Translations under genes and position numbers: made by a program
In this document: positions 9,980 to 20,580 of the stretch, piece after piece
How positions within the stretch are numbered: the stretch's first letter is position 1
How the letters are laid out: the number at the start of each line of letters is the position of its first letter
Notes under the pieces: generated by a model
The model's input: only the letters and a program-made list of their open reading frames with translations
Told to the model about the DNA's origin: nothing
The model's database searches: none
Virus record (IMG/VR): IMGVR_UViG_3300042402_001868
Span: 91,923-155,922 of that record
Source of the DNA: a virus
DNA: 64,000 nucleotides
Direction: 5' to 3' (one strand)

Positions 9980-10064
9980 TGGTGCCCAGGGTCGGACTCG
10001 AACCGACACATATTTCTACGCCAGAACCTAAATCTGGTGCGTCTACCAATTTCGCCACCTGGGC
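9980..10064 (-). tRNA. tRNA-Leu(TAG)
   Basis: Cloverleaf with long variable arm, T-loop, encoded CCA. Confidence 0.92.
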
Positions 10065-10108
10065 TTAACTACTATAATAACATACAACGTCTATAGTGTC
10101 AATCAATT

Positions 10109-10184
10109 TGGTACCAGGAGACGGAATTGAACCGCCCACGCACAGATTTTCAGTCTGTCGCTCTACCAACTGAGCTATCCTGGT
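10109..10184 (-). tRNA. tRNA-Phe(GAA)
   Basis: Anticodon arm CAGACTGAAAATCTG, CCA. Confidence 0.95.
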
Positions 10185-10186
10185 AT

Positions 10187-10278
10187 TGGCGGAAGACGGA
10201 GGAGTCGAACCCCATCCCTGTTAAGAGAACCTGGTTTTCAAGGCCAGTCGCGGGACCAACCCCACTGCATCATCTTCC
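10187..10278 (-). tRNA. tRNA-Ser(TGA)
   Basis: CTGGCCTTGAAAACCAG, long variable arm, G73, CCA. Confidence 0.9.
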
Positions 10279-10284
10279 TAATTG

Positions 10285-10358
10285 TGGTCTCGGTAGCAGG
10301 AATCGAACCTACGCTCGAACGTCCCAAACGTTCAGTGATACCATTTCACCATACCGAG
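10285..10358 (-). tRNA. tRNA-Pro(TGG)
   Basis: GAACGTTTGGGACGTTC, CCA. Confidence 0.92.
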
Positions 10359-10366
10359 CTTGTGTG

Positions 10367-10441
10367 TGGTACCTGGACACGGTTTCGAACCGCGGACCCT
10401 CTCCGTGTAAAGGAGACGCTCTACCCCTGAGCTATCCAGGC
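10367..10441 (-). tRNA. tRNA-Val(TAC)
   Basis: CTCCTTTACACGGAG, CCA. Confidence 0.93.
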
Positions 10442-10448
10442 AATAATG

Positions 10449-11618
10449 TTATAAATCAAATCCAAATACTGAACTAAAATTTTGTGAGCGAGCCTGATCT
10501 AAATCAATAGTGTACTCTTTAAATGTCTGCCAACTTTGTTCTTCTGGTGCGTTAGTTTCTAAAATATGTTTAACACTAACCAATTGCGAATGCACAGTTG
10601 CTACATCATGTTGATCTAGACCAACTGATTTAAGTATGGGTAATGATTTATCAATAGAGTCTATTGCTTGTTTACGAGCAACGCCGCTGAGAACCGACGG
10701 ATGTAGCATGCCTTCGACCACAATCATGTCTAAACTGGTCTGATACTTTTTTCTGTAATCACATACAAATGCAATCACCTTGTTGACGTCCAGTATGTTA
10801 TACGCACTGAGGGCTATATTTGTGTTAATGCCGATCCGATTGTTATCAAGTCTCATACGACCGTAAAATTCTAAATTTTCTAACATGCGCGGCCAGTTGG
10901 TGCCATCTCGAGTGTACTCGGCCACTGCATCCACCCCATCTATGCTGAGGGTGAGTTGTACATATTTAAATTGCGAAAAGCACTCGACTATTCTTGGATT
11001 TATAGTGCTGACATTTGTAGTGACTTGTAATGTAATATCCTTGCCATGCCCTTGTTCGACAATAGCGTTGGTAATTTTCAACATGCCCGGGATAATCATT
11101 GGTTCGCCACCGGTGAAGTTGATCCATTTGAGATCAGGAATTAGTTCTACAATGTCATCAATGAATTCTTCGTCATTAGACCTGTGTCCAAGATCTGAAT
11201 CAATGTGCCATTTTTTAAGTGCAGGATTGTCATGTACTTCTCGATCAATCAAACTACTCCAATTGGGCTTGCAAATCCTGCATCGAAAATTGCACAAATT
11301 ACTCAGTCTGACTTCGATTGCCTGTGGACGACTTGGTGTATCGATATCTCGAGAAAACTCAATTCCGTTCAGTTCATGAGAACGAAGAAAAATTTGCCTA
11401 AGGCTTTTTCCACCTTGTTCTTCGGTAGTTTTACATCGTTGACAACTTTCTGTTAGATTGCCTGATAATAATCCTTGCTTGACAATTTTCACATGCTCGC
11501 TTGCTAGAAATTGTTTAGGACTAGACATCTTAACCGGAGCATGTCCACAGCAAACACTTTGTTCGTCGTAGCAAAAGAATCCTCCATGCCACGGAGATGA
11601 GCAGTAGAATTCACTCAT
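10449..11618 (-). CDS. radical SAM protein with N-terminal Cys (SPASM/twitch-like) domain
   Basis: CNFRCRIC, FTGGEP, SIDG; N-terminal C..PW..CC..CxxC. Confidence 0.88.
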   Translation of the reverse strand: MSEFYCSSPWHGGFFCYDEQSVCCGHAPVKMSSPKQFLASEHVKIVKQGLLSGNLTESCQRCKTTEEQGGKSLRQIFLRSHELNGIEFSRDIDTPSRPQAIEVRLSNLCNFRCRICKPNWSSLIDREVHDNPALKKWHIDSDLGHRSNDEEFIDDIVELIPDLKWINFTGGEPMIIPGMLKITNAIVEQGHGKDITLQVTTNVSTINPRIVECFSQFKYVQLTLSIDGVDAVAEYTRDGTNWPRMLENLEFYGRMRLDNNRIGINTNIALSAYNILDVNKVIAFVCDYRKKYQTSLDMIVVEGMLHPSVLSGVARKQAIDSIDKSLPILKSVGLDQHDVATVHSQLVSVKHILETNAPEEQSWQTFKEYTIDLDQARSQNFSSVFGFDL

Positions 11619-11631
11619 TAGACTGCACCAA

Positions 11632-11705
11632 TGGAGCGGGGTAGGGGAATCGAACCCCTCGCTTTAGCTTGGAAGGCTAAGGTATTACCACTATACGAAC
11701 CCCGC
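11632..11705 (-). tRNA. tRNA-Gly(TCC)
   Basis: TTAGCCTTCCAAGCTAA, U73, CCA. Confidence 0.95.
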
Positions 11706-11706
11706 A

Positions 11707-12465
11707 TTATTCTGATTCCTTGCCAATGTTATCAGCATGATATTTTGGATCAACCTTTTTGGCAATAAAATTTGCAAAGCTCTTGTGAGCTGACAAAAAA
11801 TAATGTCCTGACTTGGTATTGTTAAATCCACGATCCACAGCCCAGTTACAAAACTCAGTTTGTCCCAGTGGTCGATACACCGAATCAGGAAAATCATATT
11901 CTTGTACTGCACCAAAACTGTCCAGGTTGATAACAGGAATATTTTTTTGTGCTGCCATGGTATTCAATGCCAGTATATTTTTTAACTTGTTCATACGACC
12001 CCACCAGCGATCAGCATGATGAGTAATCCATTGTTTTTGATATGCAACTATATCGTTATGGTTGTCAACAGGTTCTCCTGTAGCTTGGCCTTCTAGCATT
12101 ATTTTGTCTGGAATAACTTTTGAAAAATTGATTTTACCACCAGCAAGGCCAATCCATTCACCTTCTTCGTAGTCCCAGATTTCGGTACGTTCGCCACCAG
12201 TCCAGCAAGCAATCACAACATCGGGCTTTACTCGTTCTTTGTAAGGATTACAATAAGTTTCAAATATCCTAAATATTGCATCGTTTGATCCGCCGGGGAT
12301 GGCATGATTCATTGGATGGTATCCTAGTAATTGGGCCAGTTGAACTGGATAACTCATAAAGTATCCGTAATGTTCTTTGCCATAATTTAGTAAATCCACA
12401 TCTGGCTCTGTATTCATTTCTGAACCAGCGGCGTGACTGCATCCAAGTATAAGTGCTTTTTTCAT
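11707..12465 (-). CDS. SGNH/GDSL-like hydrolase or acyltransferase
   Basis: LGCSHAAG, NHAIPGGSN, C-terminal GHY. Confidence 0.6.
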   Translation of the reverse strand: MKKALILGCSHAAGSEMNTEPDVDLLNYGKEHYGYFMSYPVQLAQLLGYHPMNHAIPGGSNDAIFRIFETYCNPYKERVKPDVVIACWTGGERTEIWDYEEGEWIGLAGGKINFSKVIPDKIMLEGQATGEPVDNHNDIVAYQKQWITHHADRWWGRMNKLKNILALNTMAAQKNIPVINLDSFGAVQEYDFPDSVYRPLGQTEFCNWAVDRGFNNTKSGHYFLSAHKSFANFIAKKVDPKYHADNIGKESE

Positions 12466-12504
12466 AGAAATATTTATAGACTAATATTATACATTAGTAA
12501 AAAC

Positions 12505-12581
12505 TGGCCGGTCCTGAGAGATTCGAACTCCCAACTTCCAGTTTCGAAGACTGGCACTCTATCCAATTGAGTTAAAGACCG
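12505..12581 (-). tRNA. tRNA-Arg(TCG)
   Basis: CCAGTCTTCGAAACTGG, CCA. Confidence 0.92.
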
Positions 12582-12586
12582 ATATG

Positions 12587-12663
12587 TGGCAGGAGATATA
12601 GGATTCGAACCTATGCATGTCGGAATCAAAATCCGATGCCTTGACCAACTTGGCGAATCTCCA
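12587..12663 (-). tRNA. tRNA-Gln(TTG)
   Basis: TCGGATTTTGATTCCGA, CCA. Confidence 0.93.
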
Positions 12664-12674
12664 ACAAAACTATC

Positions 12675-12749
12675 TGGTGGATGAGAGTAGAGTCGAACTA
12701 CCACCGGACTCCGTATGAAGGAGGCGCACTACCATTATGCTACTCATCC
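12675..12749 (-). tRNA. tRNA(CAT), probably elongator Met
   Basis: CTCCTTCATACGGAG; paired 1-72, lacks initiator features. Confidence 0.8.
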
Positions 12750-12767
12750 TGGAATTTTCTAACAAGG

Positions 12768-13490
12768 CTATTGTGTTATTGTAGAATTTTTTAACAAATA
12801 TATTTTATTTTTATATATTTTATTTTTTACCTTTTGCCATTGGGAATCGTTGTCTAAGTTAACTGGATTGTGACGGTGGTCAATTTGCCGGTCGTCGACA
12901 CAGTCAGTGTTAGTCAGTACATTAATATTTTTAAATTCACCAAGTGCTTCGTATCCTAACGGACGTTCTTTAACACAGACACTCCATGCCGACCCTAATA
13001 CGTAAACATTTTTTATGTGAGTATTTTGTGACAGATAATATGTTAATTCCCAGCCCCACTCTATGGCAATTTGAAATTTGTCATGGTTACTGTAATTTAA
13101 AATCAACGGATCGATTGTACGATGGACAAAAATTACACTACCATTAATGATAAAACCTAAGGGTTCACTTTGCTTGACTTGTAAGAATAGCCGGTGTACC
13201 TGAACTAAATCTCTGATTATTCTGGTTGAATTGTTCTTAATAAAATCATTGTAATTTTTATACCATATATTAGATGCTGATATTTTTTCTGAGTTACAAT
13301 CGTATGCGGCTAAGACAACTGTTTTAATATTTTGATTGTTGTCTAAAAATGATATTATTCGTTTATATAATTGGTCAATTGTAGATTTACAATCTTCGGG
13401 TGACCAAGGATCTATTATTATAGCTAGACTAGGCTGCTCTAGGATCTTGCCACTAATTTCAGTTTTAACTTTATGAATTGTATTATACAT
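12768..13490 (-). CDS. AT-rich hypothetical protein inserted in the tRNA array
   Basis: Start reassigned to MYNTIHK because the longer ORF overlaps tRNA-His. Confidence 0.6.
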   Translation of the reverse strand: MYNTIHKVKTEISGKILEQPSLAIIIDPWSPEDCKSTIDQLYKRIISFLDNNQNIKTVVLAAYDCNSEKISASNIWYKNYNDFIKNNSTRIIRDLVQVHRLFLQVKQSEPLGFIINGSVIFVHRTIDPLILNYSNHDKFQIAIEWGWELTYYLSQNTHIKNVYVLGSAWSVCVKERPLGYEALGEFKNINVLTNTDCVDDRQIDHRHNPVNLDNDSQWQKVKNKIYKNKIYLLKNSTITQ

Positions 13491-13527
13491 GATAAAATTA
13501 CTTATCTGAGTTTGAGACTTAAAACCA

Positions 13528-13604
13528 TGGGGTGCATGATGGGATTCGAACCCACGTATATCGGAATCACAATCCGAGGTCTTAACCACTTGACGACAAG
13601 CACC
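13528..13604 (-). tRNA. tRNA-His(GTG)
   Basis: TCGGATTGTGATTCCGA, G-1:C73, CCA. Confidence 0.93.
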
Positions 13605-13638
13605 ATATAGAAACACACTGTGTCAATGTGTTTTTATA

Positions 13639-13714
13639 TGGTAGGACGTATTGGATTCGAACCAATGACCAATAGATTAAAAGTCTACTGCTCTACCAAC
13701 TGAGCTAACGTCCC
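13639..13714 (-). tRNA. tRNA-Lys(TTT)
   Basis: TAGACTTTTAATCTA, CCA. Confidence 0.95.
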
Positions 13715-13766
13715 ACAAATCTTCCCACTCTTATCACTGTCCATTTGGACTCTCCTTTTAAAAACT

Positions 13767-13843
13767 TGGTAGCTTCACTGTGACTCGAACACAGGACCCC
13801 CGCGTTATCAACACGGTGCTCTAACCAACTGAGCTATGAAGCT
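13767..13843 (-). tRNA. tRNA-Ile(GAT)
   Basis: CCGTGTTGATAACGCGG, CCA. Confidence 0.92.
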
Positions 13844-13847
13844 GAAA

Positions 13848-13923
13848 TGGTGCCCCCACCATGATTCGAACACGGGACCTACTGATTACAAATCAGTTGC
13901 TCTACCAGCTGAGCTATAAGGGC
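13848..13923 (-). tRNA. tRNA-Thr(TGT)
   Basis: CTGATTTGTAATCAG, CCA. Confidence 0.95.
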
Positions 13924-13928
13924 TTGTT

Positions 13929-14004
13929 TGGCTCCCCAACGTGGGCTCGAACCACGGACCAACAGATTAACAGTCTGCTACTCTACCGACTGAGCTATTG
14001 GGGA
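13929..14004 (-). tRNA. tRNA-Asn(GTT)
   Basis: CAGACTGTTAATCTG, CCA. Confidence 0.95.
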
Positions 14005-14015
14005 ATTGATTGATA

Positions 14016-14104
14016 TGGCCGAGAGCCTGGGAGTCGAACCCAGTGACCGTTATACACAGTCTACAGATTAGCAATCTGCTGCATTACCGTCCTGCCCGCT
14101 CTCG
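14016..14104 (-). tRNA. tRNA-Ser(GCT)
   Basis: CAGATTGCTAATCTG, long variable arm, CCA. Confidence 0.9.
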
Positions 14105-14149: not shown

Positions 14150-14692
14150 TTACACCAATGGGATGTTTAACTCTTTTAGTTTGTTAAGATAGTGTACTTG
14201 ACCTTGACTGACAGTTGTACGCCAGTCATTTAATGAATCACTATTTGCACCATCACTTACAAACTTATAACACAAAAACTCTATGTTATGTTTCTTACAT
14301 ACCTTAGCAATGGCATATGCTTCCATATCTACTACATCAGCAGGTATCAATAGATTACTATCAGTAACAAAGTTATCACCTGTGCTACACGTTAATCCAT
14401 TACCTGTGTCAATGATGATTTCATCTTCAAATGGTGTTTGACCTGGTAGACTACCTAACTCACAGCACATCATATCACGTTGTACAAACTTTGACACTTG
14501 GTGAAATCCTGACTTAACAGTAACTCCACCTGCAGTACCAAAGTTTATAACACGTTTGGGATTGTACTTTGCAATACATTCTGCCGCTGTCATTGCGGCA
14601 TTGACCTTGCCTACGCCAGTGTAAAACACCTTCATACTATAACTCATGTCAGGTGCTTCATCTTTAAGTGCAATTAAAATTAGATCGTTCAT
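14150..14692 (-). CDS. mtnN: 5'-methylthioadenosine/SAH nucleosidase (PNP/UDP family)
   Basis: TGVGKVNAA, INFGTAGG, TGDNFV, VDMEAYAIAKVC, VSDGA. Confidence 0.8.
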   Translation of the reverse strand: MNDLILIALKDEAPDMSYSMKVFYTGVGKVNAAMTAAECIAKYNPKRVINFGTAGGVTVKSGFHQVSKFVQRDMMCCELGSLPGQTPFEDEIIIDTGNGLTCSTGDNFVTDSNLLIPADVVDMEAYAIAKVCKKHNIEFLCYKFVSDGANSDSLNDWRTTVSQGQVHYLNKLKELNIPLV

Positions 14693-14715: not shown

Positions 14716-14790
14716 TGGTGGACCGTCCCGGGATCGAACCGGGGATTGAAGCTTGCAAAGCTACTGTGTTCCCATCTATACCAACAGCCC
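14716..14790 (-). tRNA. tRNA-Ala(TGC)
   Basis: AGCTTTGCAAGCT, G3:U70, CCA. Confidence 0.92.
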
Positions 14791-14795
14791 ATGAC

Positions 14796-14869
14796 TGGCG
14801 TACCCACTAGGACTTGAACCTAGACTGACGGTTTTGGAGACCGCGATGCTGCCATTACACTATGGATAC
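14796..14869 (-). tRNA. tRNA-Trp(CCA)
   Basis: CGGTCTCCAAAACCG, CCA. Confidence 0.92.
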
Positions 14870-15052
14870 TCAACACACTCTTTAGAATGTGTGTATCAAA
14901 GCACTCTAAAATACTTAGGCTGCCTGTTCTTAAAGAATGCTTTAATACGCTGTAATTTTTCATCTCACACAAGAGACTCTATCCTACAGGCCGCCCGTTT
15001 GTTTATTTTTTAAAGTGCTTTAACAGGACCTCGTTTCCTTGAGCACTAAATG

Positions 15053-15080
15053 AAAAACCCTGGAGTGTTTAGTTCCAGGG
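15053..15080 (-). terminator. intrinsic terminator (attenuator) upstream of the tRNA block
   Basis: CCCTGGA-loop-TCCAGGG followed by TTTTT. Confidence 0.75.
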
Positions 15081-15106
15081 TCCTTTGGGTAGAATACAAT
15101 TGTACT

Positions 15107-15220
15107 TTACACAGACCCTGAGTCTCCTGGAATGCTATTCACGCGACCGTTCGCATGTGACCAGGCTGATACCTGGGTAAACATGGATTTTGTTTGCAGT
15201 GAATAGTTATGTTTTTTCAT
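15107..15220 (-). CDS. 37-aa leader peptide, putative attenuator uORF
   Basis: MKKHNYSLQTKSMFTQVSAWSHANGRVNSIPGDSGSV*; ATG 10 nt after the -10 box; 3' end complementary to the terminator 5' arm. Confidence 0.65.
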   Translation of the reverse strand: MKKHNYSLQTKSMFTQVSAWSHANGRVNSIPGDSGSV

Positions 15221-15230
15221 ATTAGTCTCT

Positions 15231-15259
15231 ATTATAGTTTATTTATGATTGTGTGTCAA
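15231..15259 (-). promoter_or_regulatory. consensus sigma70 promoter
   Basis: TTGACA-17 nt-TATAAT, a perfect match; spacer contains TAAATA. Confidence 0.9.
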
Positions 15260-15275
15260 CCACAAATGGTAAAAT

Positions 15276-15360: not shown

Positions 15361-15546
15361 TTTGATAACAATACTGCTGTGTGTTTAAAGGTTCCTGCTG
15401 TATTTCTACACCAGCATCCTTCCAACAGCATGTATGACTGTGACTAGCAGTCTGCCGCAACTTTCGTCCGCTCAGCGGCCATTGGATTTATAGTTCCCCA
15501 GCAGTTGGGCTCTCAGTCAAAGAATTTTTGACACATTGTTATCAAA
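15361..15546 (-). ncRNA. putative structured ncRNA, family unknown
   Basis: Closed by the perfect 12-bp IR TTTGATAACAAT/ATTGTTATCAAA; GC-richer interior. Confidence 0.45.
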
Positions 15547-16732
15547 CAGCACTAGGTTTGAACACAGCGTCGTAGTCAGTGCCACGCATGCTGTCAAGCA
15601 GTTTAACATATTGTCGGTAATCATCATAGAGCTTTTGGTCAAACACAGTGGTTTTTCCTAGCCCTGTAATTATATTGTATAACTCTTCTCCCCATAGATT
15701 ATATGGATATATCTGTCCAAGACGAACCGACTCCGGCCTCCGCAACCAATCTACAGTTTCTATCCAGTCTACAAGACGTTTTAAGTCTTGAGGAGGTGCT
15801 GATTCCATGGTCAAACAAGGTGTACCAGACACCGTGGTTATTCTTAAATCTACTTCACGACTTTTAGCATAATCTACCAACGCCGGTAAACTGTACACAC
15901 TTGCGTGTTGCAAGGTGTGATTGATGTTTCTCACTGCCCCTGGTAATGCCTCTTGAAGGAGAATCATATTTGCAGAAATTTCCTCCCAGCGGCTAGGGTA
16001 TCTTAGATAATCATTCATAGCCCCCACACCTTCGAGGCTCACGCTGATCCATACATTTGTAAATAATTTTAACTTGTCCACGAGAACCGGCGGTACACGA
16101 GTGAGATTGGTATTAAATTGCAATCTCACATCGGTGTTATTACTGGCAATCAAAATATCTAATATTTTCCAAGTGCTTGGCAGTGGAAAGGGTTCGCCGC
16201 CGCTGATGTCAATACTCACAGCATCCTTGAGTTTTTCAGTTAAAAATTCAATGTATGCAGGATTTTCCCACCACTTGTCTGGTTGTGGGTGCTGGTGTAT
16301 CATATTGATGCGATCAAATGCCTCAGGGTTTTGGCCACGTTCCTGATGCCATGCACTGCTGGCATAAGTGCCGCACATGATGCATCTTAAATTGCAGTGA
16401 TTACCCAGGCGTATTTCAAAGTTGTAGATGGGATTATCTACACTCGGAGTAGTGTGAGTTTCTGGATGCAATTCGTTGGCTCTTTGTCTCAACGAAGTAT
16501 ATCCAAGATCTTCTTCTCGGAAACATTTTACGCATCCAACATGGCGAATTCCTTGATCAAAATCTTTAAGAATTGCAGTGCGTACATTGTCATTGTACCC
16601 TTGATATTGATCCCATCGGTATTCAAGAGACTGGTCACCTTCGGGGTACCATTGACAGCAAGGTGTTAAAACACCTTGCCATGTTATTCCCAATCCATGA
16701 TTAACCATGGAGCATGTTATTTTTTCAGCCAT
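15542..16732 (-). CDS. radical SAM protein with N-terminal Cys domain
   Basis: CNLRCIMC, ISGGEP, SLEG. Confidence 0.88.
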   Translation of the reverse strand: MAEKITCSMVNHGLGITWQGVLTPCCQWYPEGDQSLEYRWDQYQGYNDNVRTAILKDFDQGIRHVGCVKCFREEDLGYTSLRQRANELHPETHTTPSVDNPIYNFEIRLGNHCNLRCIMCGTYASSAWHQERGQNPEAFDRINMIHQHPQPDKWWENPAYIEFLTEKLKDAVSIDISGGEPFPLPSTWKILDILIASNNTDVRLQFNTNLTRVPPVLVDKLKLFTNVWISVSLEGVGAMNDYLRYPSRWEEISANMILLQEALPGAVRNINHTLQHASVYSLPALVDYAKSREVDLRITTVSGTPCLTMESAPPQDLKRLVDWIETVDWLRRPESVRLGQIYPYNLWGEELYNIITGLGKTTVFDQKLYDDYRQYVKLLDSMRGTDYDAVFKPSAV

Positions 16733-16737
16733 AGGTA

Positions 16738-17940
16738 TTACTTATTTAGAAAAGCCTGGTCAAATGTTATTTTTCGAACGGAGTCTATTGATTGAGTAAA
16801 CTCAAAAAACTTAGATCGGGTGTTTTCATTGAACGCATACTGATCTGTAAGAACTGCTTTTATATAATCTATTGCAGAATTCAGATGTGTGATATAGATT
16901 GGGGGATCTTGTCCTTTCACAATCTTGGTCAATATAGCATTATCAGCAACGAATGTTTCAATCTGTTGTAATAACTCATTGACCTGTGCAGGCGTGAGAG
17001 TGTTTATTTCAAGGTAATCGTGCCATGTTACTGTTTGCACTCGTAGAATATACGCATGGTCAACACAATATTGCAGTACTGGAATCATTGTGTAATAACT
17101 GTAATGTTGTAAAATGTACCCAATATTAAAAAAACTCATATTGGGTAGAGTGTTTAACTTTTGAATATTTGTATTGATGTTTCCCCACTTACTGCCATAT
17201 CTCACATAGTCATTATGGTCTCCAATTCCTTCGACACTGACCATAACATCTATTTGTTTAAATTTTGATAACAGTTCGTAAACATTATCTTTGAGAAGAG
17301 TTGCGTTGGTCACAATGTTAAGATACACCGCCGGAGACAATTGCTCTAAAAAAGTAATTGCTTCTGGGGTAAACAACGGCTCTCCGCCAATTAATCTTAC
17401 GTATCTTAGATTTGAAATCAAGGAAGGAGTTAGGTTTTTAAAATCTTGTGATTCGTACCAAAGAAACTTACTATCAACAGTTGGGTATTTAAAATTATGT
17501 AAAATTGAAAAATTTTGTTTAATTTCAGTATTCCAACTGGAACTACTGTATGGTCCGCACATGTTGCAACGAAGATTGCAAGTGTTTCCAAACGCAATAG
17601 ACAGGTGTTCAAGTTGATCAACTACGGCTGTATCAAATTGATCAAGATTGCCTCCAAAATGTTTGTTATATAACTGCCTTTCGCTAAACGTGTTTTTAGT
17701 AGCAGTCTCTTCAACTTCCCAACAGCGATGGCATCCCGAATGTTTAACCCCGGCTAGTAATTCTTGTCTGACAGAGTCTAATTTAGAAATCTTCCATGTT
17801 TTAAAATTTTTAATATGATGAGATTGTTTGTCTGGTGCCGAGACAGCACTTTCATCGTAGGCACAACATGGTGTAAGTTGCCCAGCATTTCCAATGCTCA
17901 TGCCAACCCAGGGCATTATGCAAAATGTATCTTTATTCAT
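16738..17940 (-). CDS. radical SAM protein with N-terminal Cys domain
   Basis: CNLRCNMC, IGGEP; start reassigned to MNKDTFC to avoid tRNA-Cys. Confidence 0.88.
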   Translation of the reverse strand: MNKDTFCIMPWVGMSIGNAGQLTPCCAYDESAVSAPDKQSHHIKNFKTWKISKLDSVRQELLAGVKHSGCHRCWEVEETATKNTFSERQLYNKHFGGNLDQFDTAVVDQLEHLSIAFGNTCNLRCNMCGPYSSSSWNTEIKQNFSILHNFKYPTVDSKFLWYESQDFKNLTPSLISNLRYVRLIGGEPLFTPEAITFLEQLSPAVYLNIVTNATLLKDNVYELLSKFKQIDVMVSVEGIGDHNDYVRYGSKWGNINTNIQKLNTLPNMSFFNIGYILQHYSYYTMIPVLQYCVDHAYILRVQTVTWHDYLEINTLTPAQVNELLQQIETFVADNAILTKIVKGQDPPIYITHLNSAIDYIKAVLTDQYAFNENTRSKFFEFTQSIDSVRKITFDQAFLNK

Positions 17941-17956
17941 ACTGATATTTAACCTT

Positions 17957-18034
17957 TGGAACACAGGGTGAGATTTGAACTCACGATTTTACGGATTTGC
18001 AATCCGTTGCATTTGACCACTCTGCCACCTGTGC
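17957..18034 (-). tRNA. tRNA-Cys(GCA)
   Basis: CGGATTGCAAATCCG, U73, CCA. Confidence 0.92.
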
Positions 18035-19017: not shown

Positions 19018-19052
19018 CAACCCTTGCGGGCTACTACAAGAAAAACTTAACT

Positions 19053-19084
19053 TTTTAAAGAACATCTAGTTAATTTCTAACTAG
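19053..19084 (-). promoter_or_regulatory. rrn-type antitermination signal (boxB-like hairpin + boxA)
   Basis: CTAGTTA-GAAAT-TAACTAG then TGTTCTTTAAAA. Confidence 0.65.
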
Positions 19085-19089
19085 TCTCT

Positions 19090-19216
19090 AGTATAGCACA
19101 ATGTCAATATCTAGTCAACTTGTTTTTGCAAGTCCCTTCACTTTAGAAGGATTCTGTTAAGAACACCTTGTTTCTTAACTTGTTTCTATTGTAGCAAATT
19201 GCGAATATTGCGTCAA
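19090..19216 (-). promoter_or_regulatory. tandem sigma70 promoters of the tRNA operon
   Basis: TTGACG-17-TACAAT (19216-19188) and TTGACT-17-TATACT (19118-19090), both with extended -10 TG. Confidence 0.8.
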
Positions 19217-19224
19217 CCTCCAAT

Positions 19225-19250
19225 AAAAAACCCGCTTAGTGCGGGTTTTT
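19225..19250. terminator. bidirectional intrinsic terminator
   Basis: AAAAAACCCGC-TTAGT-GCGGGTTTTT. Confidence 0.85.
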
Positions 19251-20264: not shown

Positions 20265-20580
20265 GGTGGTTTCTGTTACGAGGTATTTCCTACCCTAGGC
20301 TGAGTTCAGGCAGCCAAAGCGAACTGTTCGTCGTTTGCATTTACGTGTTTTGCTTCTCCGACCGGGAGACCCCTGTCCTAACGGCTTCTACATTGCCGGA
20401 CTGTCCATTTCCGTACTCTTGACCCAATCGATATCTATGTCAGGCCCATCAAAAACACACTAGAACTAAGATTTTCGCAGTCAAGTTTTAGAGTACTCGT
20501 ACTACGCCAATGTGCTTATGGTGGACCTGCCGGGAACTGCCCCCGGGTCTTGAATCCTTTTCTGTCTACTTCATACAGTC
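20265..20580 (-). ncRNA. ssrA: two-piece (circularly permuted) tmRNA, tag ANDEQFALAA
   Basis: Acceptor piece ending CAGGTCCACCA (20519) precedes the coding piece starting GGGCCTG (20447); G3:U70; tag ORF 20338-20306. Confidence 0.9.

Follow-up and report, generated by a model that had tools for sequence, protein, structure and literature searches.

Why phages carry transfer RNA (tRNA) genes and how the expression of these genes is timed are open questions; codon-usage matching, replacement of degraded host tRNAs and evasion of anticodon nucleases have been proposed. A stretch of 64,000 nucleotides (nt), hereafter the window (positions 91,923 to 155,922 of the IMG/VR virus record IMGVR_UViG_3300042402_001868), raises the question of timing directly, as a small cassette on its minus strand (15053–15259), composed of a promoter, a short open reading frame (ORF) and a hairpin, lies ahead of 17 tRNA genes. 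Does it control their transcription? The source is a viral record of 155,922 bases, with an estimated completeness of 45%, which derives from an uncultured jumbo phage of a lake; contigs of related viruses reach 330–352 kb. From a comparison of sequences, the cassette is considered, with a probability of about 0.7, to be a ribosome-mediated transcription attenuator heading a transcription unit of phage tRNAs, in which the codon repertoire of the ORF would act as a checklist.

All features of the window described here are on the minus strand. The parts of the cassette listed by an initial reading of the letters (the original prediction) were all recovered. The sigma-70-type promoter (15231–15259) consists of TTGACA (15259–15254), a 17-nt spacer and TATAAT (15236–15231), and matches the consensus at 12 of 12 positions in a promoter scan. 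The near-leaderless ORF of 37 codons (MKKHNYSLQTKSMFTQVSAWSHANGRVNSIPGDSGSV, 15107–15220, stop included) starts with the ATG at 15220, 10 nt after the −10 box, and ends with the stop codon at 15109–15107. The stem of a predicted intrinsic terminator (15053–15080) begins 26 nt after the stop. It comprises seven base pairs between CCCUGGA (15080–15074) and UCCAGGG (15064–15058), closed by the 9-nt loop ACUAAACAC and followed by five U (15057–15053). Folded alone, the hairpin has an energy of −16.3 kcal/mol (z −3.7); a terminator scan missed it only since the loops considered were limited to 8 nt at most.

The geometry involves three strands: the end of the ORF, the 5′ arm of the terminator with its flank, and the 3′ arm of the terminator. 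The 5′ strand of the putative antiterminator, TCAGGGTCT (= UCAGGGUCU, 15113–15121), is formed by codons 34–36 of the leader ORF, and its 3′ strand, GGACCCTGG (= GGACCCUGG, 15075–15083), overlaps six of the seven bases of the terminator 5′ arm. This 9-bp pairing, which had been predicted to be mutually exclusive with the terminator, is preferred in the 53-nt segment present until the 3′ arm has been made (best fold, −18.9 kcal/mol), and the minimum-energy fold calculated for the whole leader contains it as well (−52.3 kcal/mol, z −4.1). Since the antiterminator wins in the full leader and the terminator in a local segment of 76 nt (−23.3 kcal/mol), the two states are close in energy in these folding models, as a switch requires.

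Relatives of the cassette were sought in several ways. A BLAST search of the region against 50,697 phage records gave no match in near mode and only the tRNA-Met in distant mode, and no cultured relative was found among these records. The neighbouring nucleosidase gene has its best protein match in Phage C48C1 (Kyanoviridae), where the gene lies away from the tRNAs; this phage is not a close relative. The exact terminator sequence is present in 24 viral contigs. It is preceded in 23 of them by a TTGAC-N17-TAnAAT promoter, an ATG 6–10 nt further on and an ORF of 33–44 codons, and the 24th contig ends 29 nt before the terminator. A second search, through a conserved RNA lying 3′ of the terminator, gave more distant cassettes with different terminators. 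Altogether the cassette occurs in about 50 related viral contigs, in 30 distinct versions.

The promoter, TTGAC(A/C)-N17-TA(T/C)AAT, is found at the same place in the cassettes of the relatives, and the distance from the −10 box to the ATG is 6–10 nt in the 24 cassettes first checked. Frame 0 of the leader is open over 27–53 codons in all 30 distinct cassettes, whereas the other two frames have stops at 7.8% per codon. Despite this two-fold variation in ORF length, the stop codon stays 24–32 nt ahead of the terminator stem in 30/30. The peptides themselves are poorly conserved apart from a Trp (29 of 30) and a recurring N-S motif, and the leader peptide has no match in Pfam. An arrest motif like those of SecM or TnaC was considered and rejected, no motif being conserved across the cassette family.

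Both helices co-vary. The terminator stem CCCUGGA/UCCAGGG is replaced in relatives by GCCCCGGA/UCCGGGGC, CCCCAGG/CCUGGGG, CCCUGC/GCAGGG or AGCCUCUAA/UUAGGGGCU, with a U-tract after the stem in almost all of them. In an alignment of the cassettes (A1), the nine antiterminator pairs are formed in 92.7% of the cells, compared with 58–60% when the partner is slid by one column, and two of the pairs show compensatory CG/UA changes. Covariation extends over several positions in the distant cassettes, in which the sequence of the terminator 5′ flank is replaced and the ORF end changes with it, giving the strand pairs GGGGUUCUG:CAGAGCCCC, GGGGUUUUUGAA:UUCAAAAGCCUC and AGGGUUUAAGU:ACUUAAACCCU; in one contig (L163), the pairing reaches 13 bp and includes the stop codon. 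In cassettes read by eye, the antiterminator 5′ strand lies 0–21 nt before the stop codon. A swap test was carried out by scoring each ORF end against each terminator flank. Duplexes with their own partner average −17.8 kcal/mol, against −13.9 ± 0.46 kcal/mol for swapped ones, and none of 20,000 permutations was as strong; the result holds with one representative per flank type. The original prediction had described an attenuator geometry of the trp/his type, had proposed to compare the regions upstream of tRNA arrays in related phages, looking for covariation of both stems, and had named a lack of conservation of the ORF or of the alternative pairing as evidence to the contrary. Over the 30 distinct cassettes, the position of the ORF and both stems turned out to be conserved.

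The following sequence of events is proposed. RNA polymerase would start at the consensus promoter, and ribosomes would load on the near-leaderless AUG. A ribosome finishing the 37 codons would cover UCAGGGUCU during the synthesis of the terminator, so that the hairpin would form and transcription would stop at the U-tract. With the ribosome absent, or stalled at an earlier codon, UCAGGGUCU would pair with GGACCCUGG and occupy most of the terminator 5′ arm, and the polymerase would read into a structured RNA, tRNA-Trp, tRNA-Ala and further tRNAs. The constant gap of 24–32 nt would place the terminating ribosome where it blocks the antiterminator and leaves the terminator free. The scarcest downstream tRNA class would thus set the level of read-through, which would amount to negative feedback on the phage tRNA supply. 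Read-through is the predicted outcome when no ribosome is present, because no convincing protector (1:2) hairpin was found upstream in the leader by folding with shuffled controls. A possible hairpin, H1 (CCAGGU-AUCA-GCCUGG, 15161–15176), holds the single Trp codon in its 3′ arm and is weakly indicated: folding pairs the UGG in 25 of 28 members of the family, compared with 21.8 in shuffles (P 0.11), which is not significant.

The comparison of sequences supports the maintenance of the ORF, the fixed spacing between stop codon and terminator, the covariation of both helices and, as detailed below, the match between the leader repertoire and the downstream tRNAs. It is presumed from the same sequences that the leader ORF is translated. 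From the geometry and the precedent of whiB7, we infer the direction of the regulation, in which a stall leads to read-through. The trigger could be codon demand, the decay of host tRNAs or anticodon nucleases.

The conserved architecture would also be accounted for by a general sensor of translation capacity or ribosome availability. Such a device would have no codon-specific role, would report only whether ribosomes load and are able to keep up, as might matter at a late stage of infection or in the presence of translation inhibitors, and the composition of its peptide would be incidental. The leaderless start makes initiation a plausible control point, and the antibiotic-responsive ribosome-mediated attenuators vmlR (PMC9226507) and mef/mel (PMC4335068) reportedly work in this manner. 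What distinguishes this explanation from the codon checklist is the content of the leaders.

The leader of the window has at least one codon for every one of the 17 downstream tRNA classes, hence its description as a checklist. It lacks exactly the codons for Cys, Glu, Leu-UUR and Arg-AGR, which are four of the six classes whose tRNAs are encoded only upstream of the cassette (the other two being Asp and Tyr). The chance that four missing classes all fall within those 6 of 23 is 15/8855 = 0.0017, or about 0.002. The same relation holds in the family, the downstream set being defined as the tRNA genes located before any next cassette. Among the amino acids with a downstream tRNA, 1 out of 227 is missing from its own leader, compared with 18.6 ± 3.5 when leaders are permuted. 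A weighted null, conditioned on the downstream set of the cassette and the number of missing residues, with residues weighted by the frequency of their absence in the family, gives 11.3 ± 2.4 overlaps compared with the one observed. When six-codon amino acids are split into their two codon boxes, the leader has no codon for 4 of 204 downstream classes as against 17 of 31 upstream-only classes; in other words, 200/204 and 14/31, respectively, are present. A stall too late in the ORF would itself leave the antiterminator strand masked by the ribosome; 191 of the 204 downstream classes have one or more codons ahead of that zone.

The relation can be followed within the clade of the window, where the missing sets are Cys and Glu; Cys and Asp; Cys, Glu, His and Tyr; and Glu, His, Arg and Tyr. 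Wherever upstream tRNAs are in hand, the missing residues always have their tRNAs upstream. In one contig (L054), where the gene for tRNA-Cys is now located downstream, a Cys codon is present in the leader. Where the His and Arg tRNAs are upstream, the leader is devoid of these residues. Extending four arrays from the full contigs added about 18 downstream slots and one mismatch (Cys in L177).

These results modify the argument of the original prediction, which had started from the diversity of the peptide. It had reported 18 of the 20 amino acids, with Cys and Glu missing and their tRNAs upstream, and the composition is as stated. Eighteen distinct residues in 37 are nevertheless within chance under three nulls (P 0.16–0.21), as its own caveat had anticipated, so that the proposed comparison with shuffled controls yields no excess for the peptide of the window; over the family, the excess is modest (mean z +1.16, or +0.84 with Trp fixed), with all 20 residues in 7 of the 30 leaders. 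This family-wide excess is better explained by the match to downstream tRNAs. The exact cognate codons that had been put forward do not help either: 19 out of 37 is at chance given the 45% baseline of the long ORFs of the phage (P 0.27). What survives is the idea that the leader samples all the tRNAs it could control, in the form of a repertoire matched to the downstream classes and relaxed for the upstream-only ones. A general sensor leaves unexplained why leaders omit almost only classes with upstream tRNAs, and why Cys, His and Arg codons track the position of the tRNA genes within a single clade; that explanation is accordingly held to be unlikely.

Same-strand tRNA genes lie downstream of 26 of the 30 distinct cassettes, and three of the other four have less than 700 nt of downstream sequence. 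The first downstream tRNA varies: it is Trp in seven cassettes, Tyr in seven, and Ala, Asn, Ser, Asp, Gly, Cys, Lys or Glu in others. The element is therefore tied to tRNA arrays generally and not to tRNA-Trp. In relatives such as L032, there is no space for a promoter ahead of any of the first five tRNAs. Two contigs contain two cassettes, each heading its own sub-block.

In some relatives, a second cassette (L034:4270-4445 and L038:5933-6026, both on the minus strand) heads a sub-block of Asp, Glu, Tyr and Cys tRNAs, and the leaders contain exactly these residues; one of these leaders lacks Trp and His, the tRNAs of which lie after the next cassette. No second cassette was found in the window before the upstream tRNA block (Asp, Glu, Tyr, Cys). 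The leader region of this block (19050–19250) has a terminator first, then two promoter-like sites 98 nt apart, and boxA-like motifs (TGTTCTTAACA / TGTTCTTTAAAAA), with no leaderless ORF cassette.

The cassette might also be an ordinary small gene, encoding a functional 37-residue protein or a terminated small RNA of 170 nt, with an incidental position before tRNA genes. A strong promoter, a good terminator, the Trp in 29/30 peptides and the recurring N-S motif would suit such a gene, and functions in trans have been reported in Sinorhizobium both for leader peptides and for liberated attenuator RNAs (PMC6614838, PMC7298713). However, the peptides are otherwise poorly conserved and have no Pfam match, the retention of Trp is explained by a downstream tRNA-Trp, a co-varying pairing that competes with the terminator has no role in this scheme, and the cassette is upstream of same-strand tRNAs wherever there is enough downstream DNA, which makes an ordinary gene quite improbable. 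A Trp-specific attenuator, in which a single conserved UGG would sense charged tRNA-Trp and control tRNA-Trp, was rejected as having hardly any likelihood, for although UGG is in frame in 29 of 30 leaders (at codons 16–24 in the 28 with a mid-ORF Trp) and the cassette of the window is among the seven with tRNA-Trp first, other tRNAs come first elsewhere, tRNA-Trp is absent from the block behind the only leader that lacks Trp (L038b), and the repertoire match covers all classes.

In the window, ARAGORN identified 24 tRNA genes, all on the minus strand, of which 16 follow the hairpin, from Trp (14869) to Leu-TAG (9980). A 17th downstream tRNA, tRNA-Ser(UGA) at about 10191–10274, was missed by ARAGORN with default settings; it was retrieved with relaxed settings and by a weak, sub-threshold tRNA-Sec-like match in Rfam. 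The first tRNAs after the switch are tRNA-Trp(CCA) and tRNA-Ala(UGC) (14716–14869), and the remaining 15 (9980–14104) are those for Ser-GCU, Asn, Thr, Ile, Lys, His, Met, Gln, Arg-UCG, Gly, Val, Pro, Ser-UGA, Phe and Leu-UAG. The number of 17 tRNAs from Trp to Leu(TAG) given by the original prediction thus holds, but not as an uninterrupted block. The stretch is interrupted by four protein ORFs, coding for a Pfs-like nucleosidase, a radical S-adenosylmethionine (radical-SAM) enzyme and two proteins of unknown function, and it contains internal promoter-like sites.

These internal sites are among several observations that weigh against the attenuator with a codon checklist, or narrow its scope. 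A second perfect TTGACA-17-TATAAT site (14140–14112) is situated just after the nucleosidase gene and ends 8 nt before tRNA-Ser(GCU); the later tRNAs can probably be transcribed from it without passing the attenuator. A further site (10102–10074) inside the downstream block matches the consensus at 11 of 12 positions. Such promoter-like sites could supply most of the downstream tRNAs regardless of the switch. Because of these sites and of the protein ORFs within the block, the switch is regarded as one of several inputs to the 17 tRNAs in this genome. On the side of translation, the mRNA of the window is predicted to have a leader of 3–4 nt and not to start at the AUG. Moreover, 16 nt, with no terminator among them, separate the end of the upstream tRNA-Met from the −35 box, and upstream transcripts probably run into the cassette; in these the ORF would be internal, without an evident ribosome-binding site, and poorly translated. 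The loop of the terminator, A(A)CUAAACAC (15065–15073 in the window), is near-constant while the stem changes by compensatory substitutions. This conservation exceeds the need of a plain terminator and suggests an additional partner, a protein or another RNA. Regarding the repertoire, two to five mismatches are found depending on the level at which they are counted: Ser-AGY in L068, Leu or Arg boxes in L038, L150 and L069, and Cys in L177. The statistics count related cassettes as separate observations, with no correction for shared ancestry, and several of the downstream tRNA arrays are cut by contig ends.

How does the element compare with known systems? An intrinsic terminator with a G+C-rich stem of 7 bp and a U5 tract is predicted between the ORF and the regulated genes. 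An exclusive antiterminator, backed by covariation and the swap test, lies within reach of the translating ribosome. Regulatory codons match what the operon supplies in a variant form, with one or more codons per downstream tRNA class. To judge from its sequence, the element fits the structural definition of a leader-peptide attenuator in which heterogeneous codons replace the single-codon run. In classical leader-peptide attenuators, a ribosome at the stop codon favours termination. The leaders trpL, hisL, pheL, leuL, thrL and ilvL likewise combine a short leader, an intrinsic terminator and an exclusive antiterminator strand at the end of the ORF. They differ in having a run of a single codon and biosynthetic enzymes as targets, whereas the phage cassette has no run, no convincing 1:2 hairpin, a leaderless start and tRNA targets.

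The nearest tested analogue in working principle is the upstream ORF (uORF) attenuator of whiB7/wblC in mycobacteria and streptomycetes (PMC10274678), which likewise combines a uORF of mixed composition with an antiterminator and a terminator, and in which a stall at any represented codon leads to read-through. In the whiB7 uORF, a single Trp codon confers a response to Trp starvation, sensitivity to His starvation disappears when the His codons are removed, and basal expression goes up when the start codon is lost (PMC10274678). The whiB7/wblC system is bacterial, controls a transcription factor and has an Ala-enriched uORF, whereas the phage cassette targets tRNA genes with a matched repertoire. 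The cassette does not belong to that family: there is no relation in sequence or in Rfam, and it is followed, on a phage contig, by a non-coding RNA and tRNA genes. The leaderless polycysteine short-ORF attenuators of mycobacteria (bioRxiv 10.1101/834739) similarly have a leaderless short ORF as a ribosome-borne sensor heading an operon, but they sense one amino acid by means of a Cys tract and unmask a ribosome-binding site, without an intrinsic terminator. T-box riboswitches also couple tRNA status to terminator read-through via an antiterminator; they differ in that the uncharged tRNA itself is the ligand, no ORF is required, and synthetase or amino-acid genes are the targets. Neither the Stem I specifier loop nor the T-box antiterminator sequence was recognized, as Rfam gave no T-box match at E-values up to 10 over 14850–15275. 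No family was found in Rfam for the cassette or for the non-coding RNA behind it, even at that threshold over the same interval. A search of the literature found no account of attenuation ahead of phage or cellular tRNA genes.

The non-coding RNA (14880–15052) occupies about 170 nt between the terminator and tRNA-Trp and, given this position, would be the first product of read-through. It is conserved and structured: in a separate alignment (A2), 20 of the 31 predicted pairs are preserved by changes in both partners. Its invariant motifs are GGnAACGnGnnCC, GGGCGG and GAU, and it is found after the cassette in about 40 further related contigs. Contigs from RNA libraries of four studies cover the ORF and the non-coding RNA, and one insert of 131 nt bridges the terminator; this coverage could be due to DNA carry-over and was not used as evidence. 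The contig ends cluster at 15052–15054 and 15081–15082, which are the edges of a 30-nt block common to many strains. They were not read as RNA ends, because assembly graphs branch at the edges of such a shared block.

Many relatives have, directly after the terminator and before the structured RNA, a gene with its own Shine-Dalgarno sequence for a protein of 52–57 residues (L036:2654-2812, L016:1676-1837, L049:1162-1335 and others) with the motif LTxEQxxKLIxxKxERA. This protein matches no Pfam family, and no homologue was found in the partial genome of the window. A permuted, two-piece transfer-messenger RNA (tmRNA) gene is located at 20306–20580 (Rfam RF04321, 108 bits, E 8e-21); relatives also have tmRNA genes beside the tRNA array (ARAGORN on L038). 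Three paralogous radical-SAM proteins are encoded among the tRNA genes (10449–11618, 15542–16732 and 16738–17964), together with the PNP_UDP_1/Pfs-like nucleosidase (14150–14692). The radical-SAM enzymes may modify tRNA, and the nucleosidase could remove 5′-deoxyadenosine, a by-product that inhibits such enzymes. The possibility that the leader encodes the precursor of a ribosomally synthesized and post-translationally modified peptide, to be processed by the three radical-SAM enzymes, was dropped, as the peptides are too variable and the cassette travels with the tRNAs and not with the enzymes.

If the proposed reading is correct, the cassette would be the first attenuator known to control tRNA genes, and it would add the translation machinery to the amino-acid and resistance genes for which leader-peptide attenuation is known. 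Its leader would be a read-out, written in the genome, of the tRNAs that each transcription unit should supply. The question of phage tRNAs would become testable with a switch that detects failures of decoding at individual codons and responds by tRNA synthesis, as the leader ORF predicts which tRNAs are relevant for each unit. With its size of about 210 nt and its consensus promoter, the cassette can probably be tested in laboratory bacteria, and it could serve as a compact reporter of decoding stress. More generally, the balance tips slightly towards the view that large phages regulate their own tRNA arrays by means of a leaderless mini-ORF kept stocked with one codon per downstream tRNA, such that a shortage of any decoder would open the terminator and replenish the whole set.

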